Assembly (NCBI GenBank): GCA_951406725.2
Contig: OX597842.1
Coordinates: 9,610,001 to 9,674,000 of the forward strand
Length of the DNA: 64,000 nucleotides
From: Octopus vulgaris
Taxonomy: Eukaryota
Direction: 5' to 3'
Positions 47,473 through 61,880 of the stretch are shown here, in pieces. The stretch's first letter is position 1. Every line of letters begins with the position of its first letter. A model generated the notes under the pieces. It made no database searches, had not been told where the DNA came from, and saw only the letters and a program-made list of their open reading frames with translations. The position numbers and the translations under genes were made by a program.

Positions 47473-47550
47473 ATGGCGGAAAAGGCTACACTCGCTTACC
47501 TACAAGGGGCCACTCTCAAGACCTTAGGTGATGACCCTAAGGAGTTTGGG
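47473..47550 (+). CDS. PRXL2A: PRXL2A/SelU coding exon 1 ([26 protein letters not shown]); the exon begins at 47396 with 5'UTR
   Basis: Polypyrimidine tract plus TACAG acceptor ending 47395; ATG at 47473 in context ACAATGG; in-frame TGA upstream at 47446 and 47416; GTGAGT donor at 47551; matches the KAALEYLEDIDLKTL..PRTF segment of PRXL2A. Confidence 0.85.
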
Positions 47551-48919: not shown

Positions 48920-50186
48920 TGTATGTATATGTATATATATGTATGTATATATATATGTATGTATATGTATATATATGTATGTATATATATATGTATGTAT
49001 ATATATATATATGTATATGTGTATATATATATATATCACCGTGACCGACCAGGCTATCAGATGTTGCTGCACATCGCTGGTCACAATGCGCTTCACATTG
49101 TTTTAGCCTTTAAATGACGCCACCCCGCTGGCTAAGCGAGCAGGCCAACAGAAGAGAGAGTTGTGGCAACTACCCACTGCCAGAGCCTTGTGGAGCTTTA
49201 GGTGTTTTAGCTCAATAAACACTCACAACGCCTGGCCTGGGAATCGAAACCGTGATCCTACAACCGCGAGTCCGCTGCCGTAACCACTGGGCTATTGCAC
49301 CTCCACATATTTTTATATATATATATTTTTTTTTTTGGTGATTTTAATAAGAGTTTTGACTGTTATTTCAAGCAGGTAGACATACTATGTCCTTGGATTA
49401 ATTTTAATCCCTTGGCTATTTAATGCTATTTTTGGCCTGCTATCGCCTGTCCCCTTGATTCTGTTATCATTTTTAAAATAGTTACATTGGATGATAATAA
49501 AATTAATGACACCTTCACAAATTAATTTTTCGTATATATATATATATATATATATCGTGGGCATGAGTAGGCGCGGGCATGGCTGTGTGGTTAGGGAGCT
49601 TGCTTCCTAGCTATATGGTTTCGGGTTCAGTCCCACTGCGTGGCACTTTGGGCAGGTGTCTTCTGCTATAGCCCCGAGCCGACCGAAGCTTTGTGATTGA
49701 ATTCGGTAGGCGGAAGTTACTGCCGTGTGTGTAGGTGCTCAGTGCCTCTCCAAAAGTGAGAGAGGGATATGTATATATGTAGTCCTGTCTGAGCAAGGAT
49801 ATGTGTGTGTGTTTGTTTGTTTGTTTGTGGCCTGTATATCTGGAGTGTTTTTCAAATTTGTTTTTTTGTTTTCACAGGCTGGAGAACTCTGGAAGAATAA
49901 CGGAGCTATCATCATGGTGGTCCGTCGTCCAGGATGATCCATGTGCAGAGAGGTAAGCACTTTTATCATTTATATATACCCCATCATCCTCCTCCTCCTC
50001 ATTATCATCATTACCACCAGCACCACTCCAGAGTGGCTGGCATTAGGAAGGGCTTCCAAGCCATAGATGCCATACCAGAACAGAAAGTGGAGCCTGGTCC
50101 AGTCCCTGGCCTTACCAGACCAGTTCTGGTCAAACCGTCCAACCCATGCCAGCATGGAAAACGGACATTAAATGATGATGATGATA

Positions 50187-50232
<46 letters not shown>

Positions 50233-53200
50233 CGTAAAAAGCACCATCCAAACGTGGCTGATGCCAGAGCTGCCTTGACTGGCATCCGTGCCGGTGGCAC
50301 ATAAGAAGTGGTCGGTGTTTGGAAGAGCATCTAGTCATAGAAATCACACCAAAGCTAACAGTGGAGCCCAACACAGTCCTTTAGCTTACCAGCTCCTGTC
50401 AAACCACCCAACACATGCTGGCATGAAAAACTGTTAAGTGATGACGACAATGATGATGATGGTGATGATGACGATGATGACGATGTTGATGACGACGATG
50501 ATGATGTTGGTGACGATGTTGGTGATGATGACGATGTTGATGATGATGATGATGATAACGATGGTGATGTTGGTGATGATGACGATGTTGATGATGATGT
50601 TTATTACACCTGCTGGTCTTCTGTTTTCTTTTTCAGGAAGCGCAAGCGCTGTCCTCTCTGGTGCCTTACTTTGATGAACATGGCTTTAACCTTTATGCCG
50701 TTGTACACGAAGTGATGGGCACCGAAGAATTCAAATCTTTTTTTTCCGGGGAAATATTTTTGGACGTTGAAGTAAGTACATATACTCTTTTACTCTTTTA
50801 TTTGTTTCAGTCCTTTGACTGCGGCCATGCTGGCGCACCGCCTTTAATCGAGCAACTCGACCCCAGGACTTATTCTTTTGTAAGCCCAATACTTATTCTA
50901 TCGGTCTCTTTTGCCGAACTGCTAAGTAATGGGGACATAAACACACCAGCATCGGTTGTGAAGCAATGCTAGGGGGACAAACACAGACACACACATGCAT
51001 ATATATATATACATATATACGATGGGCTTCTTTCAGTTTCCGTCTACCAAATCCACTCACAAGGCTTTGGTCAGCCCGAGGCTATAGTAGAAGACACTTG
51101 CCCAAGGTGTCACACTATGGGACTGAACCCGGGACCATGGGGTTGGAAAGCAAGCTACATACCACACAGCCACTCCTGAACCTAATATATTTATTTTTTT
51201 TATATATTCCTTCAGTCTTCGGGCGTTAGCTTGGAGTTCCTTAGCAGACATGCTGTGTCTTCTGTAATCAACAGCAATTCCAATTGTTGGGGCTTCCTTC
51301 TTGCTGATGCTAGCTCTCTTCAACTCTTCAATGGTGAAACCATGTCCAGCATGGACACGCATGTTGTATTTGATGGAAGGACATGTAACGAGATTGAGCT
51401 GGGAGAATCTTTAGCACCTGGACAAAGTGCTTAGCGGTATTTCGTCTGCTGCTACATTCTGAGTTCAAATTCCGCCGAGGTCAACTTTGCCTTTCATCCT
51501 TTCAGGGTCGATAAATTAAGTACGAGTTATGCACTGGGGTCAATATAATTGACTTAATCCGTTTGTCTGTCCTTGTTTGTCCTCTCTCTGTTTAGCCCCT
51601 TGTGGGTAGTAAAGAAATAGGTATTTCGTCTGGCATTACGTTATGAGTACAAATTCTGCCGAGGTCGACTTTGCCTTTCATCCTTTCAGGGTCGATAAAT
51701 TAAGTACCAGTTACACACTGGGATCGATATAATCGACTTGATCCCTTTGTCTGTCCTTGTTTGTCCTCTCTGTTTAGCCCCTTGTGGGTAGTAAAAAAAT
51801 AGGAATGACATGTAATGATTGGCCAAAGAGGTCCAGCAGCCGGTCTGGGAGCTACTTTCCTCACTTTCATCATCCTCTTCCTTGCTCGGCGCTTTTTGCA
51901 CATTGGCTGGTCAAACCAGGTTCGGACATAACGCTGCCAGTCCTTGTGAAAATGGCCATTTGGCACCGTTTGGTTTCCAAGATGTGCCATAGTGATAAAC
52001 GATCCTATTTTTTGTCTCTTGTAACTTGTATATTGTTTCAGACAAATATGGTTACAAAGACACACATATATGTAGGCATATATATGTAGAAGACGTGTAC
52101 ATATGCCATGCATGTCCCATTTTGTACGTACACCACACATCCCCCGTTTCGTACGTACACCACACATCCCCTATTTTGTACGTACACCACACATCCACAA
52201 TTTCGTACGTACACCACACATCCACAATTTCGTACGTACACCACACATCCACAATTTCGTACGTACACCACACATCCACAATTTCGTACGTACACCACAC
52301 ATCCACCATTTCGTACGTACACCACACATCCACCATTTCGTACGTACACCACACATCCACCATTTCGTACGTACACCACACATCCACCATTTCGTACGTA
52401 CACCACACATCCACCATTTCGTACGTACACCACACATCCACCATTTCGTACGTACACCACACATCCACCATTTCATACGTACACCACACATCCACCACTT
52501 TGCATGTACACCACACATCCACCACTTTGCATGTACACTACACATCCACCATTTCGTACGTACACCACACATCCATTTCGTACGTACACCACACATCCAC
52601 CACTTGGCATGTACACCACACATCCACAATTTCGTACGTACACCACACATCCACCATTTCGTACGTACACCACACATCCACCACTTTGCATGTACACCAC
52701 ACATCCACCATTTTGTACGTACACCACACATCCACCATTTTGTACGTACACCACGCATCCACCATTTCGTACGTACACCACGCATCCACCATTTCGTACG
52801 TACACCACGCATCCACCATTTCGTACGTACACCACGCATCCACCATTTCGTACGTACACCACGCATCCACCATTTCGTACGTACACCACGCATCCACCAT
52901 TTCGTACGTACACCACGCATCCACCATTTCGTACGTGCACCACGCATCCACCATTTCGTACGTGCACCACGCATCCATTTCGTACGTGCACCACACATCC
53001 ACCATTTCGTACGTGCACCACACATCCACCATTTCGTACGTGCACCACACATCCACCATTTCGTACGTGCACCACACATCCACCATTTCATACGTACACC
53101 ACACATCCACCACTTTGCATGTACACCACACATCCACCATTTCGCACGTACACCACGCATCCACCATTTACGTACGTACACCACGCATCCACCATTTCAC

Positions 53201-56200
53201 CACACCACACGTACGTACACACACATCCACCATTTCGTACGTACGTACACCACACATCCACCACTTTGCATGTACACCACACATCCACCATTTCGCACGT
53301 ACACCACACACCCACCATTTCGTACGTACACCACACATCCACCATTTCATGTATGCCATGTATCCACCATTTTGTACACGCATGCCCCATGTATCCACCA
53401 ATTTATACATGTATGTATATGTGTAAGTATAAATGTATATATAACATTTAATCCTTTTTTTCTTTGTAGAAAACATTTTATGGTCCTAAGAAACGTTGGG
53501 CATCTTTTGCAGCACTTCTAAACCCTTTAGTATGGATGAATTTATGTAGAGCGAAAAAGAAAGGCGTAAGTGGTAACACATCAGGTGAAGGAAGACTTTT
53601 AGGGGGTAAGTCATCATTTGTCTTGTTCTTTTTTGCTTGTTTTTTTTTTTGTCATTGATGTGTGCCCATTCTGGGGACACTGCCTTGAAGGGCTCAAGTC
53701 AAGTGGTTCTCAGTTGGGTTCCATGGGGGTCCCTGAGATTTTGTTATTAAAATTTTATGTGCAATAAATGGAGGGCAGCGAACTGGCAGAATTGTTTGCA
53801 TGCAGGGCAAAGTGCCCAGTGGTATTTATTTCATCTGTTGGTGGCACATAAAAAGCACCATTCGAGGGTGGTCGTTACTGGCACGTGAAAGAACATCTGA
53901 GTGAGGTTGTAGCCAGTGCCACTGGACTGGCTCCTGTGCAGGTAGCATGTAAAAAACACCATTTGAGTGTGGCCATTGCCAGTACCACCTGACTGGCACG
54001 TAAAAGCACTCACTACACTCTCAGAGTGGTTGGCATTAGGAAGAGCATCCAGCTGTAGAATTTCTACCAGACCAGATTGGAGCCTGGGGCAGCCATCTGG
54101 TTCGCCAGTCCTCAGTCAAATCGTCCAACCCATGCCAGCATGGAAAGTGGACGTTAAATGATGATGATGCTCTGAGTTTAAATACCACCAAGGCTGACAT
54201 TGTTTTCATCCTTTTGGAGTTGATAAAATAGGTACCAGTTGAACACCAGGGTAGATTTAATCGGCTTACCTCCTACCCCATAATTGCTGGCTTTGTGCCA
54301 AAACTTATGTGCAATAAATGAAGGGCAGCAAGATGTCGGAATCGTTAGATTGCAGGGCAAAATGCTTATTGGCATTTTTGTCTGTCTTTACATTCTGAGT
54401 TCAAATTCCACCAGTGTCAACTTAGACTTTTATCCCTTTCAGGGGTTGATAAAATACATACCAGTCAAGCACTGTGGATTAATTGTGGGACCAGAAGTGG
54501 GTTCATACTGAGGATGGTTTGTCGTGGATTGTGTTCAGTGGGGTTGTTTTGTCTTGGAAATTTAATTTATGAGAAGATTAACCCTTTAGCATTTAATCCG
54601 GCCAAAAGTATTCTGCTTGTTTTATGTTCAAACTGGCCAGATCTGGTCTCTCACACCAACCCTACAATATCGTTTTTAAAATTAACAGCTACCTCATCAG
54701 AATCTCATAGCTACAAGATAATGCATGATTAGTTCAAAACAATTTGGATGAAAAAGCATTAATTTTGGTAGAATAATGTGAACACTAATGGGTTAATAAA
54801 CAAAGGTTGTTTTTGTGTGGTGGAATAATTAATTACAAAGTGCATTTCAGACATTCTAAGACTTTTCCAGGTGAGACATTTATTAATTTCAATGAAGTAC
54901 AAAACAACAGTCTCCTTCAAGTAGGATCCCCTAATTTCAATATACTCGTAGCATTCCATCCACTTTGTGAATGTGTCAGGACCCTTGTCACAGCCTCTTG
55001 AAGTTCTCATTGGACTTGTGATCGTAAGATTGTGGTTTCGATTCCTAGACCGGACAATGCTTTGTGCTCTTGAGCAATACACTTCATTTCACATTGCCCT
55101 ATTCCACTCGGCTGGTAAAAAAATGAATAATCCTTTGATGGGCTGGTGTCCCGTCCGAGTGGGTAATTTACATGCCATGGAAACCAGCCCTTATGAGGTA
55201 ACTTTACCTTGTCACAGCCTCTTTTGCCTTCTCAATGCCTTCAAAATAACTGTCCCTGAAGTTCTCCTTCAGTACTCCAACCATTTTGGTAAGGTTCCAT
55301 GGCTGTTGTTGTTGTTAAGCAACAAGACGGGTAAGGGTGATGGTCTTGGGCTTAGTGGCGGAAGACCCCAGATCGTGGCCAAACAAAAAAAAAAAACTTT
55401 GGTCGTCTTGTAGTTGAGGGCTCTTCTTTGACGCCTGACACCACTGGGAGGTGGCCCTCGAAGTCGCTGGAAATGGAGATCTCCAGGTTCAAATTCTTGA
55501 ACGGCAGGTTCCATAGCTGTGACAAGGTGTCCAGGACCCTTGTCACAGCCTCCTTCATCTTCAAAACAACTGCCCCTAAAGTTCTACTTCAGCTTAGGGA
55601 ACAACCAAAAGTCACAAGGTCTGGACTATAGGGAGTGTGAGAGACAGTTTTTTGGTGCCTATCTCTGTCGATTGCCAGGATATTCATCACCAAGCATCCT
55701 GGGAACAAAATTTGCACACGTTCAGATCTCCATGAATAATTCTGTGTACAGTTGATATGCCAACTCCAAGCCATGTGCTTATTGTCTTTTATAGATACAC
55801 GATGGTCTTCATCCACAAAACTGCAAATTTTCTCAACCAGCTTTGATGTACATCATTTACATTTGATGAATATTTGTCCTCATCTTGTTTGTTGTTAACA
55901 CAACGTTTCAGCTGATATACCCTCCAGCCTTCTTCAGGTGTCTTGGGGAAATTTTGAACCTGGGGTCTCATTCCTAAGGTATTTGAGTCTCTACATCTAC
56001 ACAGGAAAGTTAGATGGTTTGAAAGAGGAGCTAGTATTTGATAGAGTTTCTCTATATGTCTCCATTGAAGTCTAATGTTGGCTCCGTACCAATTAGATAA
56101 TACAGTTCCATATTAAAGAGATGAGGAATTATGGACATTATTTATATTTGAAGGCTATTTGTCCTCATCTTGTTTGTTGTCATCACCTTTCGGCTCATAT

Positions 56201-58578
56201 ACCTTCCAGCCTTCATCAGGTGTCTTGGGGTAATTTCGAACCTGGGTTCTCATTCCGAAGGTATTTTTCGATGTTATTATTATTCCAAGCAGTGACCCGA
56301 AAAATAATATCGAAAAATACCTTCGGAATGAGAACCCAGGTTCGAAATTTCCCCAAGACACCTGATGAAGGCTGGAGGGTATATCAGCTGAAACGTTGTG
56401 TTAACAACAAACAAAAATGAGGACAAATATCCGTTGAATGTCAATAATGTAAATATGACGATGGTGATATACTAAAATTACTACAATCTAAGTTCCTTTC
56501 CTAAAAAAGTCTCAAAACTTCTGGAATGCACCTTGTATGCTTAATTTTTGTTTTCTGTTTTATATATTTGACTCCATCTCTTTCCTTTTTCTTGTTTTAC
56601 AGGAGTTTTCGTAATTGGTCCGGCAGAAGCGGGGATTTTGCTGGATCATCGAGAAAACAAGTTCGGAGACCACGTCAAGGCGGAGCTGATCAAGTCTGTC
56701 GTGGCACAGTTCAGGGGAACAGATAAAGACAAAGGCGGAGAAGGTACAGCAGTTGTGGAGAGTGCCGTCGATGAACCGAAGAGTGCATTTGGGGGCTTCT
56801 CTGACATCACCCGTGGCGTGACCGACTCGCTGCAAGATACAGCATCTGGTGCAACGAGTATGGCCAGCCAAGTGCAACAGAACGTCACGAGCGGAATTGA
56901 GGACGCAAAGCAGAGCGCCACTGACGAGATTGATCGTGCCAAGTCAGGCGTGGCAGAAACTGCGAGCGAAATGCAGCAGGACGTAGAGAGCACGGTCGCT
57001 GAAGGGAAAAAGAGCTTAGTAAGCGGTTTCGCTGATGCACGGAAATCAGCAACAGATAGTTACAGCGGCGTGACTAGTTCATTTGGTGATGCACAGAAAA
57101 GTGCAGTGTCAGGATTCAATGAAGCGAAGCAATCTGCAGTAAAAGGATATGGAGACGCTCGTAGCGGAGTCACAAGTACCATCAGTGGTGCACAAGAAAG
57201 TGCAGTATCCGGTTTCAATGAAGCGAAGCAGTCTGCGAGTCAAGGACTCGGAGATATTCGCAGCGGCGTAACAAGCACCATCTCGGATACACAGAAAAGT
57301 GCGGTCACCGGATTCAATGAAGCGAGACAATCTGCTGTCAAAGGAGCCAGTGATATTCGCAGCGGTGTAACCAGCACCGTGTCCGATGCGCAGAAAAGTG
57401 CAGTAACAGGATTCAATGAAGCGAAGCAATCTGCTGTCAAAGGAGTCGGAGATATCCGCAGTGGCGTAACCAGTACAGTCTCTGATGCACAGAAAAGTGC
57501 AGTCACTGGATTCAATGAAGCAAAACAATCTGCTGTCAAAGGAGTTGGAGATATCCGCAGCGGCGTAACCAGTACAGTCTCTGATGCACAGAAAAGCGCA
57601 GTCACCGGATTCAACGAAGCGAAGCAATCTGCGGTGCAAGGAGCCAGTGATATTCGCCGAGGTGTGAGCAGCACTGTGAGCGATGCACAAAAGAGTGCAA
57701 CATCTTCATTCAATGAAGCAAAACAATCGGCTGTCCAAGGGGCCGGAGATATTCGCAGCAGCGTTACAGGTGCGATTAGCGAAACACAAAAAAGTGCAGC
57801 GTCTGGACTCGATGATGCAAAGCAGTCAGCGATGCAAGGGTACAGTGACATTCGTAGCGGAATAAGCAGCACCGCCAGTGATGCACAGAAAAGTGCAGTC
57901 ACAGGATTCAATGAGGCGCGAAAATCTGCAACTGATAGCATTGGTGACATTCGCAGTGGTGTGACCAGCTCGGTAAGCAGTGCGCAGAAGAATGTAGTAT
58001 CTGGAATCAATGATGCCAAACAATCTGCATCCCAGGGCCTTGGTGACATGCAGCAAAAGGTGACAGCCTCTGTTGCTGATGTGCAACGGAGCAGCGCATC
58101 TAGTTTTTCGTCAGCCAAGCAAGGCCTCACCTCCGGTGTTTCCAGTGCAAAGGGCAGCTTCAACACTGCCAAGGACGATGCGGCGAGCACTTTCTACGAT
58201 GCCAAGCAGTCTCTCGACGACAGCGTGTCGTCATCCAAGCAAGCAGTCTGCGAGAGTGCAAACACCGTTCGTTCGGACGCAGATGCTGCAAAGAACCAAC
58301 TAGCAAGCAGCGTCCAGTCGGCAAAGGATCTCGGTTCAGAAACTGCAGACAAAGCGAAACAGACCACGACCACAGAGGCAGCCGGTCTTAAGGGCACCCT
58401 AGACAAGTTCACCAAGGACCTGCCTGGCAAGGAAGATTTCCAAGAGGCCCTGGACATGGCTAAAGAGGTCGGCAAAGAAGAAATAAAAGATGTTATTGAA
58501 CAAGTAAAAACCACAGCCGGGACTGCAGTATCGGATTATACGACGCAGTTCACCGATAAACTTGGTTCCTGGAGTTAA
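47473..58578 (+). CDS. PRXL2A: Selenoprotein U / peroxiredoxin-like 2A (FAM213A family) with UxxC motif, fused to a ~600-aa 11/33-mer amphipathic repeat tail; 5 coding exons, 2400 nt, 799 aa
   Basis: Manual splicing of join(47473..47550,49878..49952,50637..50771,53470..53605,56603..58578), all GT-AG with phases 0,0,0,1, gives [59 protein letters not shown]...[17 protein letters not shown]...[33 protein letters not shown]. This is colinear with human PRXL2A as recalled (ELWEKNGAVIMAVRRPGCFLCREEA, GEIFLDEKKKFYGP, GEGFILGGVFVVG, GILLEHREKEFGDKV). Confidence 0.93.
48127..48795 (+). mobile_element. Three tandem SINE family B copies in the first coding intron
   Basis: Three head-core-tail units separated by (ATT)n. 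Confidence 0.75.
49878..49952 (+). CDS. PRXL2A: PRXL2A/SelU coding exon 2 with Sec codon TGA at 49935-49937 (U46) and Cys49
   Basis: TTTTCACAG acceptor and GTAAGC donor; translates [24 protein letters not shown]. Confidence 0.93.
50637..50771 (+). CDS. PRXL2A: PRXL2A/SelU coding exon 3
   Basis: TTTTCAG acceptor and GTAAGT donor; [45 protein letters not shown]. Confidence 0.92.
50785..51178 (-). mobile_element. SINE family A in SelU intron 3, adjacent to the truncated end of the RPL13 pseudogene
   Basis: Full reverse copy. Confidence 0.8.
51200..51990 (-). pseudogene. RPL13: Processed pseudogene of 60S ribosomal protein L13 (eL13), N-terminal ~120 codons, split by a SINE
   Basis: [29 protein letters not shown]...[15 protein letters not shown] | [41 protein letters not shown]...[11 protein letters not shown] matches eL13 motifs (HFHKDWQ, APRP, GRGFSLEEL, TIGISVD, LQANVQRLKEY); intronless, many substitutions at conserved sites, 3' part missing. 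Confidence 0.9.
51389..51806 (+). mobile_element. SINE family B (partly duplicated) inserted into the RPL13 pseudogene
   Basis: GCCTTTCATCCTTTCAGGGTCGATAAATTAAGTACC core twice; 9-bp TSD GACATGTAA at 51380-51388 and 51807-51815. Confidence 0.85.
52124..53400. repeat. 27-bp minisatellite (TACACCACACATCCACCATTTCGTACG)n, roughly 45 copies
   Basis: Directly visible tandem unit; 9-aa periodic translations in all frames. Confidence 0.95.
53470..53605 (+). CDS. PRXL2A: PRXL2A/SelU coding exon 4
   Basis: TCTTTGTAG acceptor and GTAAGT donor (phase 1); [45 protein letters not shown]. Confidence 0.9.
54800..55840 (-). mobile_element. Degenerate, fragmented mariner (Tc1/mariner) transposase remnants
   Basis: Minus strand reads HTPYSPDL, then a frameshift to [31 protein letters not shown] (~55520-55640) and [16 protein letters not shown] (~54910-54970); this fits the mariner YSPDLAPxD motif and C-terminus. 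Confidence 0.7.
55850..56450. mobile_element. Three Penelope-like terminal-repeat fragments (two forming an inverted pair) with minimal hammerhead motifs
   Basis: Copies at ~55850-55985 (-), ~56156-56280 (-) and ~56303-56450 (+); CCTGATGAAGGCTGG...TCAGCTGAAACGTTGTG signature. Confidence 0.65.
56603..58578 (+). CDS. PRXL2A: Terminal coding exon: end of the PRXL2A domain plus LEA/perilipin-4-like repeat tail
   Basis: TTTTACAG acceptor; [31 protein letters not shown] continues without a stop into the 646-aa ORF (56638-58578) and ends at TAA. Confidence 0.9.
57088..58077 (+). repeat. Ten tandem 99-nt (33-aa = 3 x 11-mer) coding repeats, consensus [11 protein letters not shown][22 protein letters not shown]
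   Basis: Exact 99-nt periodicity (GAT codons at 57088, 57385, 57484, 58078), flanked by more degenerate 11-mers. Confidence 0.92.
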
Positions 58579-60452
58579 ACAGACCGTGACGATGGCAATA
58601 AAGACATTGTCAGTGGAAGCTGTTGATCGGATTATATCACCATCGTCACCATCAGCAGCAAACACACTCACACACACGCATATAGATATACAAGCACACA
58701 CACACATGCATACATATGCATAAATACAAACGTGTGTATATATGTATATGTGTATAAACACGCACACACACACATATATACACTTGCATATACACACGTC
58801 GAAATACACACACAGGTACATTAACCCAAAGATACACATGTATAAACACACACATACACAGATAAACACAAACACATATACTTATAAATGAATATATAAA
58901 TACATACATATATACACGTTTCCAGGAATCAAAATGATTTATAAAAAAAAAAAAGACAGGAAAAATACTGAAAAGAACCCATAAAAAAAATAGAGAAAAA
59001 GTACATAAAAAAAACATCAAAAATGTGTAAAATTTAAATGAATGAAGACCACGAAGAAGACGCCGCCGAAGAAGACGAAAGAGGGGGGAACTCCCCACTC
59101 TCCCCTCGTTAGCTCCCCGCTAAAGAAAAATAAATTGAACAGTGAAAAAAGAGAGAGAGAGAGGAGAGAGAGAAAGCAAGATCAGATGCTGTAATCTAAA
59201 CTAATTGGATTCGTTCATTAAGTTACCTCCTGTTGCCGTCGCCCTCCCTCCCCCCTCGCCTTGCCAACCACCACCACCACCACCCGTCGACGCCTCCACC
59301 ACCATCACTTCCTTCAGCAGCAAGAAAAAACAAAGAGGAAAATGTTATATTGTTTAAAGGCGTCGGCTGGATTGTTACTATGGCAACAATGGCAACTAGT
59401 TGTGTAGTTTGCTGGGTTGGGCCGTGGTGTGTGTGTGTGTATGCGTGAGTAACATGTATATGCAAGTGTAATGTATTTGTGCGCCTGTGTTTATATGCAT
59501 GTCTGTATGTATATATATATACATATATATATAAGCAAATGTGAAGATATATACATGTATGCATGCATCTACAAGTGCATGTGTATATATTAAAGCATAT
59601 GTATTTGTGTACATAAATATATATATATATATATGTACATACATGCACATACATACACAGCCCATATCTATATATAGTGCAAACGTGCATGCACTCATAA
59701 ATGCATACACACATGGATCACACTTCCCAGTTGGTACCCAGGCATTTTCCATTATTTCAACTTCTTTCCTTAAACTCTGGACACAGAAAGGAATCGGTGA
59801 GAGGAGGAGGAAGAGGAAGACCAAGAAGAAGAGTAGGAGGGATTATCTGTCTGTCTCTGTGTGTATATCTATATCTCTCTCTCTCTCTTTATATGTCCTA
59901 TGTCTCCGTTAATCTGTCCTGTATTCCGACCGTTTCATGTCTGTCCGCAATAAATCTGCTGTAACGCTATATATGTGTCGTTGAGGTACACTCGAGGCCC
60001 CTTTTTTTTTTTTCTCGCCCGTTCTCTCTCGACCAACGTTACCCGTGTGACATCGGCCCAACTTTTCCCCACTGGGTTCACACGCGTACGTCCGGTCGAA
60101 ATACATTCTGGCCTCACCTGCTTACATACCTTACCTGCCTAAACTGCCTTCCTGCATGCCTTTTCGTCTGTCTCTCCGTCTCTTGGTGTCCGTCCATATC
60201 TGTTTTGTAAGTATGTGAGTGAACGCCTGAATGAATGCGTGCATGTTTGCCAGAGTGCCCATCTTTTGAAGCATGCAATTTTCCAAGAAGAAACAGTGAG
60301 AAAGTGTAAAGGAAAAAAAAAAAATTACAAAAAAAAATAATAATAATTTCCATGCATTGGTGTTGCAGTTTGGTGCAGCTTTGCGGTTGTTGAGAAGTGG
60401 TAGTAATAAAGGTTATTGTTATTATTATTCTCAATGGTTATCGCTATTCCAT

Positions 60453-60546
60453 GCGAGGGCTCACTGCCGAATGACGGCACCAGACTCAAAAGTCACTGAC
60501 CCTGTCTGGGAGCCCGATGAAATCCTACCGCAGAATAACCCCTCGT
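60453..60546 (+). promoter_or_regulatory. SECIS element (eukaryotic type II) in the 3'UTR
   Basis: ATGAC (60471-60475) / CGAT (60515-60518) quartet; helix II GGC-A-CCAGAC / GTCTGG-GA-GCC; AAAA at 60488-60491, 12 nt after the core; apical mini-stem GTC-act-GAC; helix I CTGC/GCAG plus GCGAGGG/CCCTCGT. Confidence 0.88.
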
Positions 60547-60724
60547 TCATCGAATGTGATATCTGCAGACCTCCGCCAAACGCAGCCACCACCAACCACT
60601 CACTATCTTCCCACCCACCCACCCACCCACCCACCCCGACATGTCCCTCTCCTCCCCTCTCCAACAAAAAACATATACAATACATTGACTGGAGAATGGA
60701 GAGAAAAAAAGCGTAATGAACAAA

Positions 60725-60839
60725 AATAAAGCCCTCCCCCTCCATTGCCATGGTCCCCACCCGAGAAAAAGTACAATTCAAATTACAGAAAAAGCTTCAT
60801 AAAGAATAATATTTAAAAAAAATGAAAAATTACAATAAA
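60725..60839 (+). terminator. Candidate distal polyadenylation signals downstream of the SECIS
   Basis: AATAAA at 60725-60730 and 60834-60839, followed by a GT/T-rich tract at ~60888-60910. Confidence 0.45.
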
Positions 60840-60902
60840 AGTTTTGAAAATTTCCCCACAAAAAAAATTTAAAAAAAAAAAGAAACTTTGATGTGTCTTT
60901 TG

Positions 60903-60936
<34 letters not shown>

Positions 60937-61106
60937 CTATATATTAATACGCTAAGGCTGAAATGTGTTGAACTGTCATGTGGTTAGCTGAAAGGAGAGA
61001 CAAAGAACGAAAGAAAAAGTGGAAGAGAGAAGTGTTAACGACATGAGGTAGGGAGAAAGTAATAGTTGTTATGCTAGGATGCTGTCGAGTGGTTAGTTCA
61101 AAAGAG

Positions 61107-61880
61107 GGATCTTTTCCTTTTGAACGGCACTTTGTAACATCATTTCTAGGTAACTAAAAAGTTTTAAACTTCATATACTGGTAGAATGTGTTTATAAAAC
61201 ATCATTCTCTCTTTGCTTTATTGAGAAGATTCTATAGTTTGTAAGATATTTCGTCTGAAATTTCGAGCATTTCGGCAATTTTAGCCAATCGATTACCTCC
61301 ATTTAGGTAAATAACATTCTGTGCATAATGAATATGTCCCTCGTTTAAGAAACAGATTGGGTTTATTTACATTTGTGAAGAAAAAAAGATACCCTTCCCC
61401 AACCCCTAACCCTAAATCTAAAATAGATTGAAATGCAATAGATCGATACTGGGGCCATAATTATGGGTGACATTTTCATTTGACATCGCTAGAAAAAAAT
61501 CCCATTTTCCGTAGCAGTGTCATAAGAAATTGTCACCCATAATTATAACCCTAGTATCAATCTATTGCATTTCAATCTATTTTAGGGTTAGGGGTGAGGG
61601 AAGGGTATCTTTTTTTTCTTCACAAATGTAAATAAACCCAATCTGTTTCTTAAACGAGGGTCATATTCATACGGCACAGAATGCTTTTTAACTCAAGACG
61701 TCATTGATTGGTTGAAATTGAAAAAAAAAACAACAAATATCTTACAAACTATAGAATTTTCTCAATAAAGCCAAGAGAAAGAGATGTTTCATAAACACAT
61801 TCTACCAGTATACGAAGTTTAAAATTTTTTTAGTTACCTAGAAATTATTTTACAAAGTGCCGTTCAAAAGGAAAAGATCC
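61107..61880. mobile_element. Fold-back non-autonomous DNA transposon (MITE) with ~380-bp inverted arms; Merlin/hAT-like 8-bp TSD
   Basis: Starts GGATCTTTTCCTTTTGAACGGCAC and ends GTGCCGTTCAAAAGGAAAAGATCC; flanks CAAAAGAG / CAAAGGAG; internal CCCTAACCCTAA motifs. Confidence 0.85.

Follow-up and report, generated by a model that had tools for sequence, protein, structure and literature searches.

A conserved, intron-split hairpin 3′ of the in-frame UGA in an Octopus vulgaris SelU gene: a probable selenocysteine redefinition element

We analyzed a 64,000-nucleotide (nt) stretch of the Octopus vulgaris genome (GenBank assembly GCA_951406725.2, contig OX597842.1, positions 9,610,001 to 9,674,000 of the forward strand), hereafter the window, in which a SelU1/PRXL2A-like gene carries an in-frame TGA that is followed, in the spliced mRNA, by a stable hairpin. 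From its sequence and by analogy with known elements, this helix is probably a selenocysteine (Sec) redefinition element (SRE) that stimulates UGA recoding in SelU. A preliminary description of the window had suggested an SRE-like role, and this prediction is now well supported by the position of the hairpin, by in-register conservation of its pairs, by synonymous constraint, and by relaxation in cysteine (Cys) forms of the gene. Features lie on the plus strand unless stated otherwise, and positions are counted from the first letter of the window.

A UGA-proximal hairpin divided by an intron

The UGA (49935-49937), the putative Sec codon, is preceded by GGA and lies in exon 2 (49878-49952), which encodes RRPG-UGA-SMCRE with its UxxC motif. 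After an 8-nt spacer (49938-49945), the spliced sequence (49946-50660) folds into 9 bp, a 1-nt 3′ bulge, 4 bp and a 4-nt loop (13 bp in total), with 49946 and 50660 forming the outer pair of the lower stem; the fold thus reproduces the geometry given in the preliminary description. The first 7 nt of the 5′ arm (49946-49952) close exon 2, whose donor GT begins at 49953. A GT-AG, phase 0 intron of 684 nt (49953-50636), delimited by sequence and spliced contigs, separates them from the remaining 5′ arm, upper stem, loop, bulge and 3′ arm, all in exon 3 (50637-50660); both portions are placed by the fold and by the clade alignment described below. The hairpin is placed as SREs are, as a coding-region stem-loop that starts no more than about 10 nt 3′ of an in-frame UGA. 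It is not itself a eukaryotic Sec insertion sequence (SECIS), being a plain Watson-Crick stem in the coding sequence (CDS) without the AUGA/GA kink-turn core and apical AA.

The minimum free energy of the UGA plus 40 nt is −20.8 kcal/mol in the spliced sequence, compared with −6.0 kcal/mol for the local unspliced sequence. In a 209-nt two-exon context, eight of the nine lower-stem pairs have probabilities of 0.87-1.0, and the outermost has 0.18. When its 14 codons were recoded synonymously 5000 times, the hairpin had a z score of −4.18 (uniform codon use) or −4.57 (the gene's own usage) against the recoded set, with p = 0.0002, and dinucleotide shuffling gives z = −3.8. No other 42-nt stretch of the CDS folds as stably: none of 757 non-overlapping in-frame windows reaches its energy (the runner-up, at −20.5 kcal/mol, is 0.3 kcal/mol weaker). 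The signal is local, since it weakens when the window is widened to 20 codons (z = −2.2, p 0.02 against synonymous recodings).

The exon 2/3 junction, which the preliminary description had placed within the hairpin, is spliced in contigs from all four public runs in which it was followed (three studies), TGA included and continuing into exon 4. The types of these runs were guessed (RNA or unknown), and it is because the contigs are spliced that we take the runs to be RNA; no run carrying the sequence is registered as RNA, which says nothing about expression. The most divergent run shows no change in the hairpin portion, although 80 of 797 letters are different in its exon 5 contig.

The description had also held that the hairpin exists only in spliced mRNA. 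This is true of the compact hairpin. It does not hold for the lower stem, which is also predicted to pair across the intron, with the intron's first G taking the place of that of exon 3: an 894-nt unspliced fold gives seven of eight lower-stem pairs at probabilities of 0.87-0.996, in a long-range equilibrium prediction of a kind that is unreliable in vivo. This fold brings up a role in splicing, in which GAG would be required at the exon end before the donor, purine-rich codons would serve as enhancers, and lower-stem pairing from one side of the intron to the other would join the exons or mask the 5′ splice site. The invariant GAG is indeed the last codon of exon 2, and the intron position appears to be shared. 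Gene models of Mytilus, Mya and Lamellibrachia (P0056, P0059, P0062) skip the UxxC/UGA exon, likely through misannotation around the UGA, and resume at E-A; three unnamed predictions, retrieved by a homologue search with exon 3 alone, have intron-like sequence directly before E-A. These records suggest that the intron position is old and apparently common to bivalves and an annelid. We nevertheless consider a splicing role quite unlikely, given that the upper stem lies entirely within exon 3, that the 3′ arm is pyrimidine-rich, that long-range folds of this kind are unreliable, and that the helix is relaxed after a Sec-to-Cys change (see below), which splicing would not lead one to expect.

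Pairing and synonymous sites in the animal clade

To find relatives, the peptide flanking the UGA was searched for as a degenerate pattern, in which codon choice was free and the 3′ arm was excluded. The pattern yielded 120 metagenome loci (96 TGA and 24 TGY). Removal of 20 (duplicate 42 nt or fewer than 14 codons) and of six spurious loci (L008, L011, L042, L051, L106, L107) left 94, comprising 15 animal-clade UGA loci, 68 non-animal UGA loci and 11 TGY loci. The 15 clade relatives were defined by a protein tree in which they group with the window (a quick tree, approximate likelihood ratio test (SH-aLRT) 92), drawn when the folds were already known.

All 15 clade relatives have TGA at the site, and RNAalifold applied to them without the window returns the same 12-bp helix. 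In-register pairing is found in 93.9% of 180 cells, compared with 42-58% for slid registers. All 12 pairs are kept in nine relatives and 11 in another five, whereas synonymous resampling of these 14 predicts 7.3-8.2 (each p 0.002-0.047); pairing is thus conserved in most clade relatives, contrary to the outcome (no conservation in orthologues) that the preliminary description had named as refuting. When the window is included, observed pairing exceeds the expectation given the peptide in 15 of 16 rows. The median z score is −4.14 at the site and −0.14 in 83 downstream control windows of the same open reading frames (ORFs). The loop varies freely in sequence (4-6 nt) among the clade rows, yet 15 of 16 rows have G as the closing base of pair 20-27, across five different amino acids.

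The constraint extends to synonymous sites. The median pairwise protein identity among clade rows is 57%, and codon identity at fourfold or sixfold degenerate residues is 0.57 in the six stem columns against 0.29 in 38 others (p 2.6e-4). Outside the stem the pairwise median of codon identity is 0.27, which means saturation at synonymous sites, three close pairs excepted. Of the 16 rows, 15 encode the stem Arg with AGR, as against 6 and 8 for the two Arg that precede the UGA. The helix joins third codon positions to third positions (9-39, 12-36, 15-33), and selection on it therefore acts on synonymous sites. At pair 12-36 we count A-U in 11 rows, G-C in three, G-U in one and A-C in none (Fisher p 0.009, with rows that are not independent). 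Of the check suggested at the outset, for covariation and for synonymous constraint, it is the second part that gave a clear positive answer.

Sequence context beyond the stem is possibly constrained as well. The codon before the UGA (49932-49934 in the window) is GGA in 14 and GGG in two of the 16 rows, and codon +2 (49941-49943) is always NTG (TTG, ATG or CTG).

Selenocysteine and cysteine forms of SelU

The position of the UGA aligns with a Cys of homologues, including the named PRXL2A records. Among 94 homologous proteins, 35 start 1-2 residues after the UGA position, 46 have Cys, and 13 that fitted neither class clearly were left out; the 35 truncated records are, we infer, Sec genes cut by the gene caller. 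The residues encoded by the 3′ arm, [S/A]SL, are present in 31 of these 35 but in 6 of the 46 Cys records; when the Cys records are restricted to the 17 in the same identity range, 4 have them. Ranked by loss of conservation among 49 columns, Ser+12 and Ser+11 are second and third, behind His+119. The helix also appears, from these sequences, to hold the L-[S/A]-S-L residues in place for as long as the gene uses UGA. At the DNA level, none of the 11 TGY loci reaches z ≤ −2.5 (median +0.36), and none of the 11 belongs to the animal group. The Cys locus L078 encodes nearly the same peptide with codons that do not pair (z +1.5). Pattern scans for animal Cys-form DNA returned one UGA locus from viral contigs and nine spurious-looking matches from genome contigs.

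His+119, invariant in the UGA-truncated records and kept in 41% of comparable Cys records, is possibly a Sec-linked catalytic partner, to judge from the alignment.

Several observations weigh against the SRE assignment. The first group concerns the strength of the conservation. L060, a UGA gene inside the clade, retains only 6 of 12 pairs, and in the wider animal clade the UGA loci L050, L090 and L098 keep 10 pairs or fewer, which lowers the count to 14 of 18. Covariation, for which the preliminary description had called, is thin: a two-sided change is seen in one of the 12 pairs only, of 500 shuffles, 35 reach the observed number of covarying pairs and 32 reach the observed covariation score (not significant), and the RNAalifold covariation term is −0.06. 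The peptide by itself accounts for about 7.7 of the 12 pairs. These last points are what one would expect if the helix were a by-product of protein conservation, in which purine-rich CREEA codons and pyrimidine-rich LSSL codons pair by accident and kinship makes the rows alike. We regard this explanation as very unlikely, because the 11-12 pairs observed exceed the peptide expectation in nearly every row, because synonymous sites elsewhere are saturated, and because L078 shows that nearly the same peptide can be written in codons that do not pair.

The second group concerns the link to Sec. The contrast with Cys forms is drawn at the protein level between lineages that are not independent, and some records with 'C' may be Sec. 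His+119 drops like the two serines, and so protein-level co-adaptation also exists. Among non-animal UGA loci the median z score is −0.95; z ≤ −2.5 is found in 11 of 68 (compared with 2.3% of 386 control windows), and at least 10 pairs (10-11, in the same register) in 5 of 68. Most of these loci have no helix, which indicates that the helix is unnecessary for Sec insertion in SelU. By these sequences, Sec forms of animals typically have the helix, and elsewhere it is patchy. Finally, the SECIS of the window is, on sequence, a candidate (see below).

Some individual loci are of interest in their own right. L060 (987-1616), placed by the quick tree as sister to the Cys proteins of nematodes (support 94), folds another local hairpin; in this lineage the helix may be lost before Sec is. 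Similar hairpins (z −2.7 to −4.2) occur in two non-animal UGA SelU groups (L016, L036, L065 and L114; L021 and L043), where they would be either ancestral or convergent. The UGA-bearing SelU of L115 groups with a fungal (Jimgerdemannia) protein with support 96 and has a downstream fold of its own (−21.5 kcal/mol). L122 (258-291) is a UGA-bearing SelU-like ORF on a 5.2-kb contig of a viral collection, either host carry-over or a captured gene.

Proposed role, SECIS candidates and the host gene

While the UGA is in the ribosomal A site, about 11-12 downstream bases fill the mRNA entry channel, and 8-nt spacers place structures there (PMC13517186). Such structures are thought to delay termination (PMC13517186, PMC3159437). 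Provided that it folds in cells, the helix would be positioned at the entry channel in this way and, by analogy with SELENON, SELENOP SRE1 and viral elements with 8-nt spacers, would slow or disturb eRF1-dependent termination. The contest would thereby be tilted from termination to Sec, with more time for the Sec-tRNA recruited by the SECIS, and the UGA would be read as Sec with the help of a 3′ untranslated region (UTR) SECIS. A stop codon upstream of the last exon junction exposes an mRNA to nonsense-mediated decay, and the UGA is located 286 nt upstream of that junction; recoding would thereby spare the mRNA.

The same location is compatible with a helix that is real and serves another role: a general ribosome pause, readthrough without Sec, a shield against nonsense-mediated decay, a selenium-dependent protein-binding site, or even a lowering of recoding as in SELENOS. 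There are precedents, in that SECIS-independent readthrough is among the effects promoted by the SEPN1 SRE, and the proximal stem-loop of SelS inhibits recoding (PMC6844570, PMC4561486). We consider such roles unlikely, since the freely varying loop argues against a sequence-specific loop binder and the spacer and position are like those of stimulatory elements.

It is instructive to compare the proposed SelU SRE with elements already described. The SEPN1 (SELENON) SRE has a 6-nt spacer, 16 bp and a 5-nt loop (PMC3159437). Like the SelU hairpin, it is a conserved coding-region stem-loop of similar size, a few bases 3′ of the Sec UGA and additional to a 3′ UTR SECIS; the SelU hairpin differs in its 8-nt spacer, 12-13 bp, 3′ bulge, variable loop of 4-6 nt, division by an intron and unrelated protein family. 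The SELENOT (SELT) coding hairpin, an EvoFold prediction, begins 8 bases after the UGA (PMC1440920) and shares with SelU this spacer and the comparative nature of the evidence. It came from vertebrate genomic alignments, whereas the SelU hairpin is interrupted by its 684-nt intron and has invertebrate-like relatives at a median protein identity of 57%. Disruption of SELENOP SRE1 cut recoding by up to 50%, an effect that was rescued (PMC5727441), and SPS stems occur in UGA-containing SPS genes (PMC4561486). SELENOP SRE1 and the SPS2 SRE or hymenopteran readthrough element are likewise UGA-proximal coding-region stems; SRE1 and the hymenopteran element are described as overlapping or enclosing the UGA, while in SelU it is free, 8 nt upstream. 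Readthrough elements of murine leukemia virus, Venezuelan equine encephalitis virus, tobraviruses and kelch share an 8-9 nt spacer, a basal stem of 10-14 bp, a 1-nt bulge and synonymous-site constraint (PMC3159437). In contrast to SelU, these viral and Drosophila elements use near-cognate tRNAs and mostly have loops of 100-270 nt or a pseudoknot, with other +4 contexts.

Literature searches and the portions consulted of PMC3316567, PMC3473315, 10.1101/2025.05.29.656587, PMC8704476, PMC5727441, PMC6844570, PMC3541580, PMC12936836 and PMC4561486 revealed no SelU element, although theses or subscription papers may mention one; in the portions consulted of three SelU papers there is no mention of a coding-region structure. 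The observation is real and the SelU hairpin conserved, and it is likely an addition to the known SREs. Described SREs are few (SELENON, SELENOT, SELENOP, SPS2), and with SelU a further family contributes a candidate, one of deep conservation. At least four Sec-to-Cys conversions of SELENOU1 are reported in tetrapods (10.1101/2025.05.29.656587). We find Cys records of SelU in gastropods, a leech and nematodes. Such conversions constitute a natural experiment on whether each loss of the UGA is followed by decay of the helix. Two further implications are that RNA can impose what looks like amino-acid conservation beside a catalytic site, and that screens of genomic alignments can miss UGA-proximal structures split by introns, so that screens of spliced mRNAs may find more of them in other selenoproteins. 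A wider scenario, which we put forward as doubtful, is that the recoding helix is ancestral to animals, or perhaps older, and split by an intron at a fixed position; splicing would assemble its compact form, its lower stem may before that bridge the intron and cover the 5′ splice site, and the one helix would couple splicing to Sec decoding, dictate L-S-S-L, and decay at each Sec-to-Cys swap.

The SECIS candidate of the window (60471-60519) is of type 2, with an ATGA core, AA and GA. It is the only plus-strand site in the 64 kb to pass the combined pattern and fold filter (one passes on the minus strand), and its fold has z = −2.6. The pattern alone is at chance level (10 sites observed, 10.06 expected). 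Rfam did not match the candidate, and at E ≤ 5 over 58500-61500 it returned only simple-repeat, microRNA-like noise and no SECIS. At the gathering score Rfam had no matches across the window, and over the hairpin site in 11 spliced relatives it returned only a chance-level IhtA match (E 0.79).

The long repeat tail contributed by exon 5 puts the candidate 4155 nt from the UGA in the spliced model. Seven of 17 loci examined, several of which have no 3′ sequence, have SECIS candidates at 669-1106 nt from the UGA, and Rfam SECIS_1 gives sub-threshold matches in two of 11. The proposal in the preliminary description that the hairpin arose to offset a very distant SECIS was rejected, since relatives with the same hairpin have these nearer candidates; the hairpin is thus older than the long distance, although its importance may still be greater in the window gene. 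The seven candidates of relatives were also aligned with that of the window, and the alignment was too poor to yield a model.

By its sequence, the host gene is SelU1/PRXL2A, with the motif RRPG-UGA-SMC. It shares with SelU1/SELENOU1/PRXL2A (FAM213A) both the AhpC-TSA_2 thioredoxin-like domain and the RRPG-(U/C)-xx-C motif, and a protein search with a close relative of the gene retrieves records named peroxiredoxin-like 2A. In a quick tree from which SelU2/3 outgroups were left out, the window protein falls with all 19 named animal proteins in a 38-row clade (SH-aLRT 95), its nearest named matches being a leech and gastropods. A search of the PDB returned only prostamide/prostaglandin F synthase. 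Exon 3 matches the genome once, and the gene is thus single-copy, which ruled out a comparison of paralogues.

Five coding exons lie in the window and, read through the one in-frame TGA, give 799 codons (CDS of 2400 nt) with the UGA as codon 46. Exon 1 (47473-47550), identified from sequence, has its presumed start codon ATG at 47473 and joins exon 2 in frame; the 3′ end of exon 2 is joined to exon 3 in the run contigs. Exon 3 (50637-50771) begins Pfam AhpC-TSA_2 (E 0.0009, under the curated cut-off on this fragment). Exon 4 (53470-53605) is joined to exons 3 and 5 in run contigs. The coding part of exon 5 (56603-58578, stop TAA at 58576-58578) encodes the end of the thioredoxin-like domain and a repeat tail of about 600 residues, by which the window copy differs from the SelU1 family.

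In this tail (56720-58578) the SelU domain runs in frame into Ser/Ala/Gly-rich repeats with a period, by eye, of 33 residues, while clade relatives with complete ORFs stop soon after the SelU domain. The tail is at least partly transcribed: contigs from all four runs, one of them about 10% divergent, enter exon 5 for at least 797 nt with no joint. Among the contig pieces listed, none extends beyond 57971 in exon 5, which proves nothing. The intron between exons 3 and 4 contains a long tandem array of units of about 23 nt (52140-53380).

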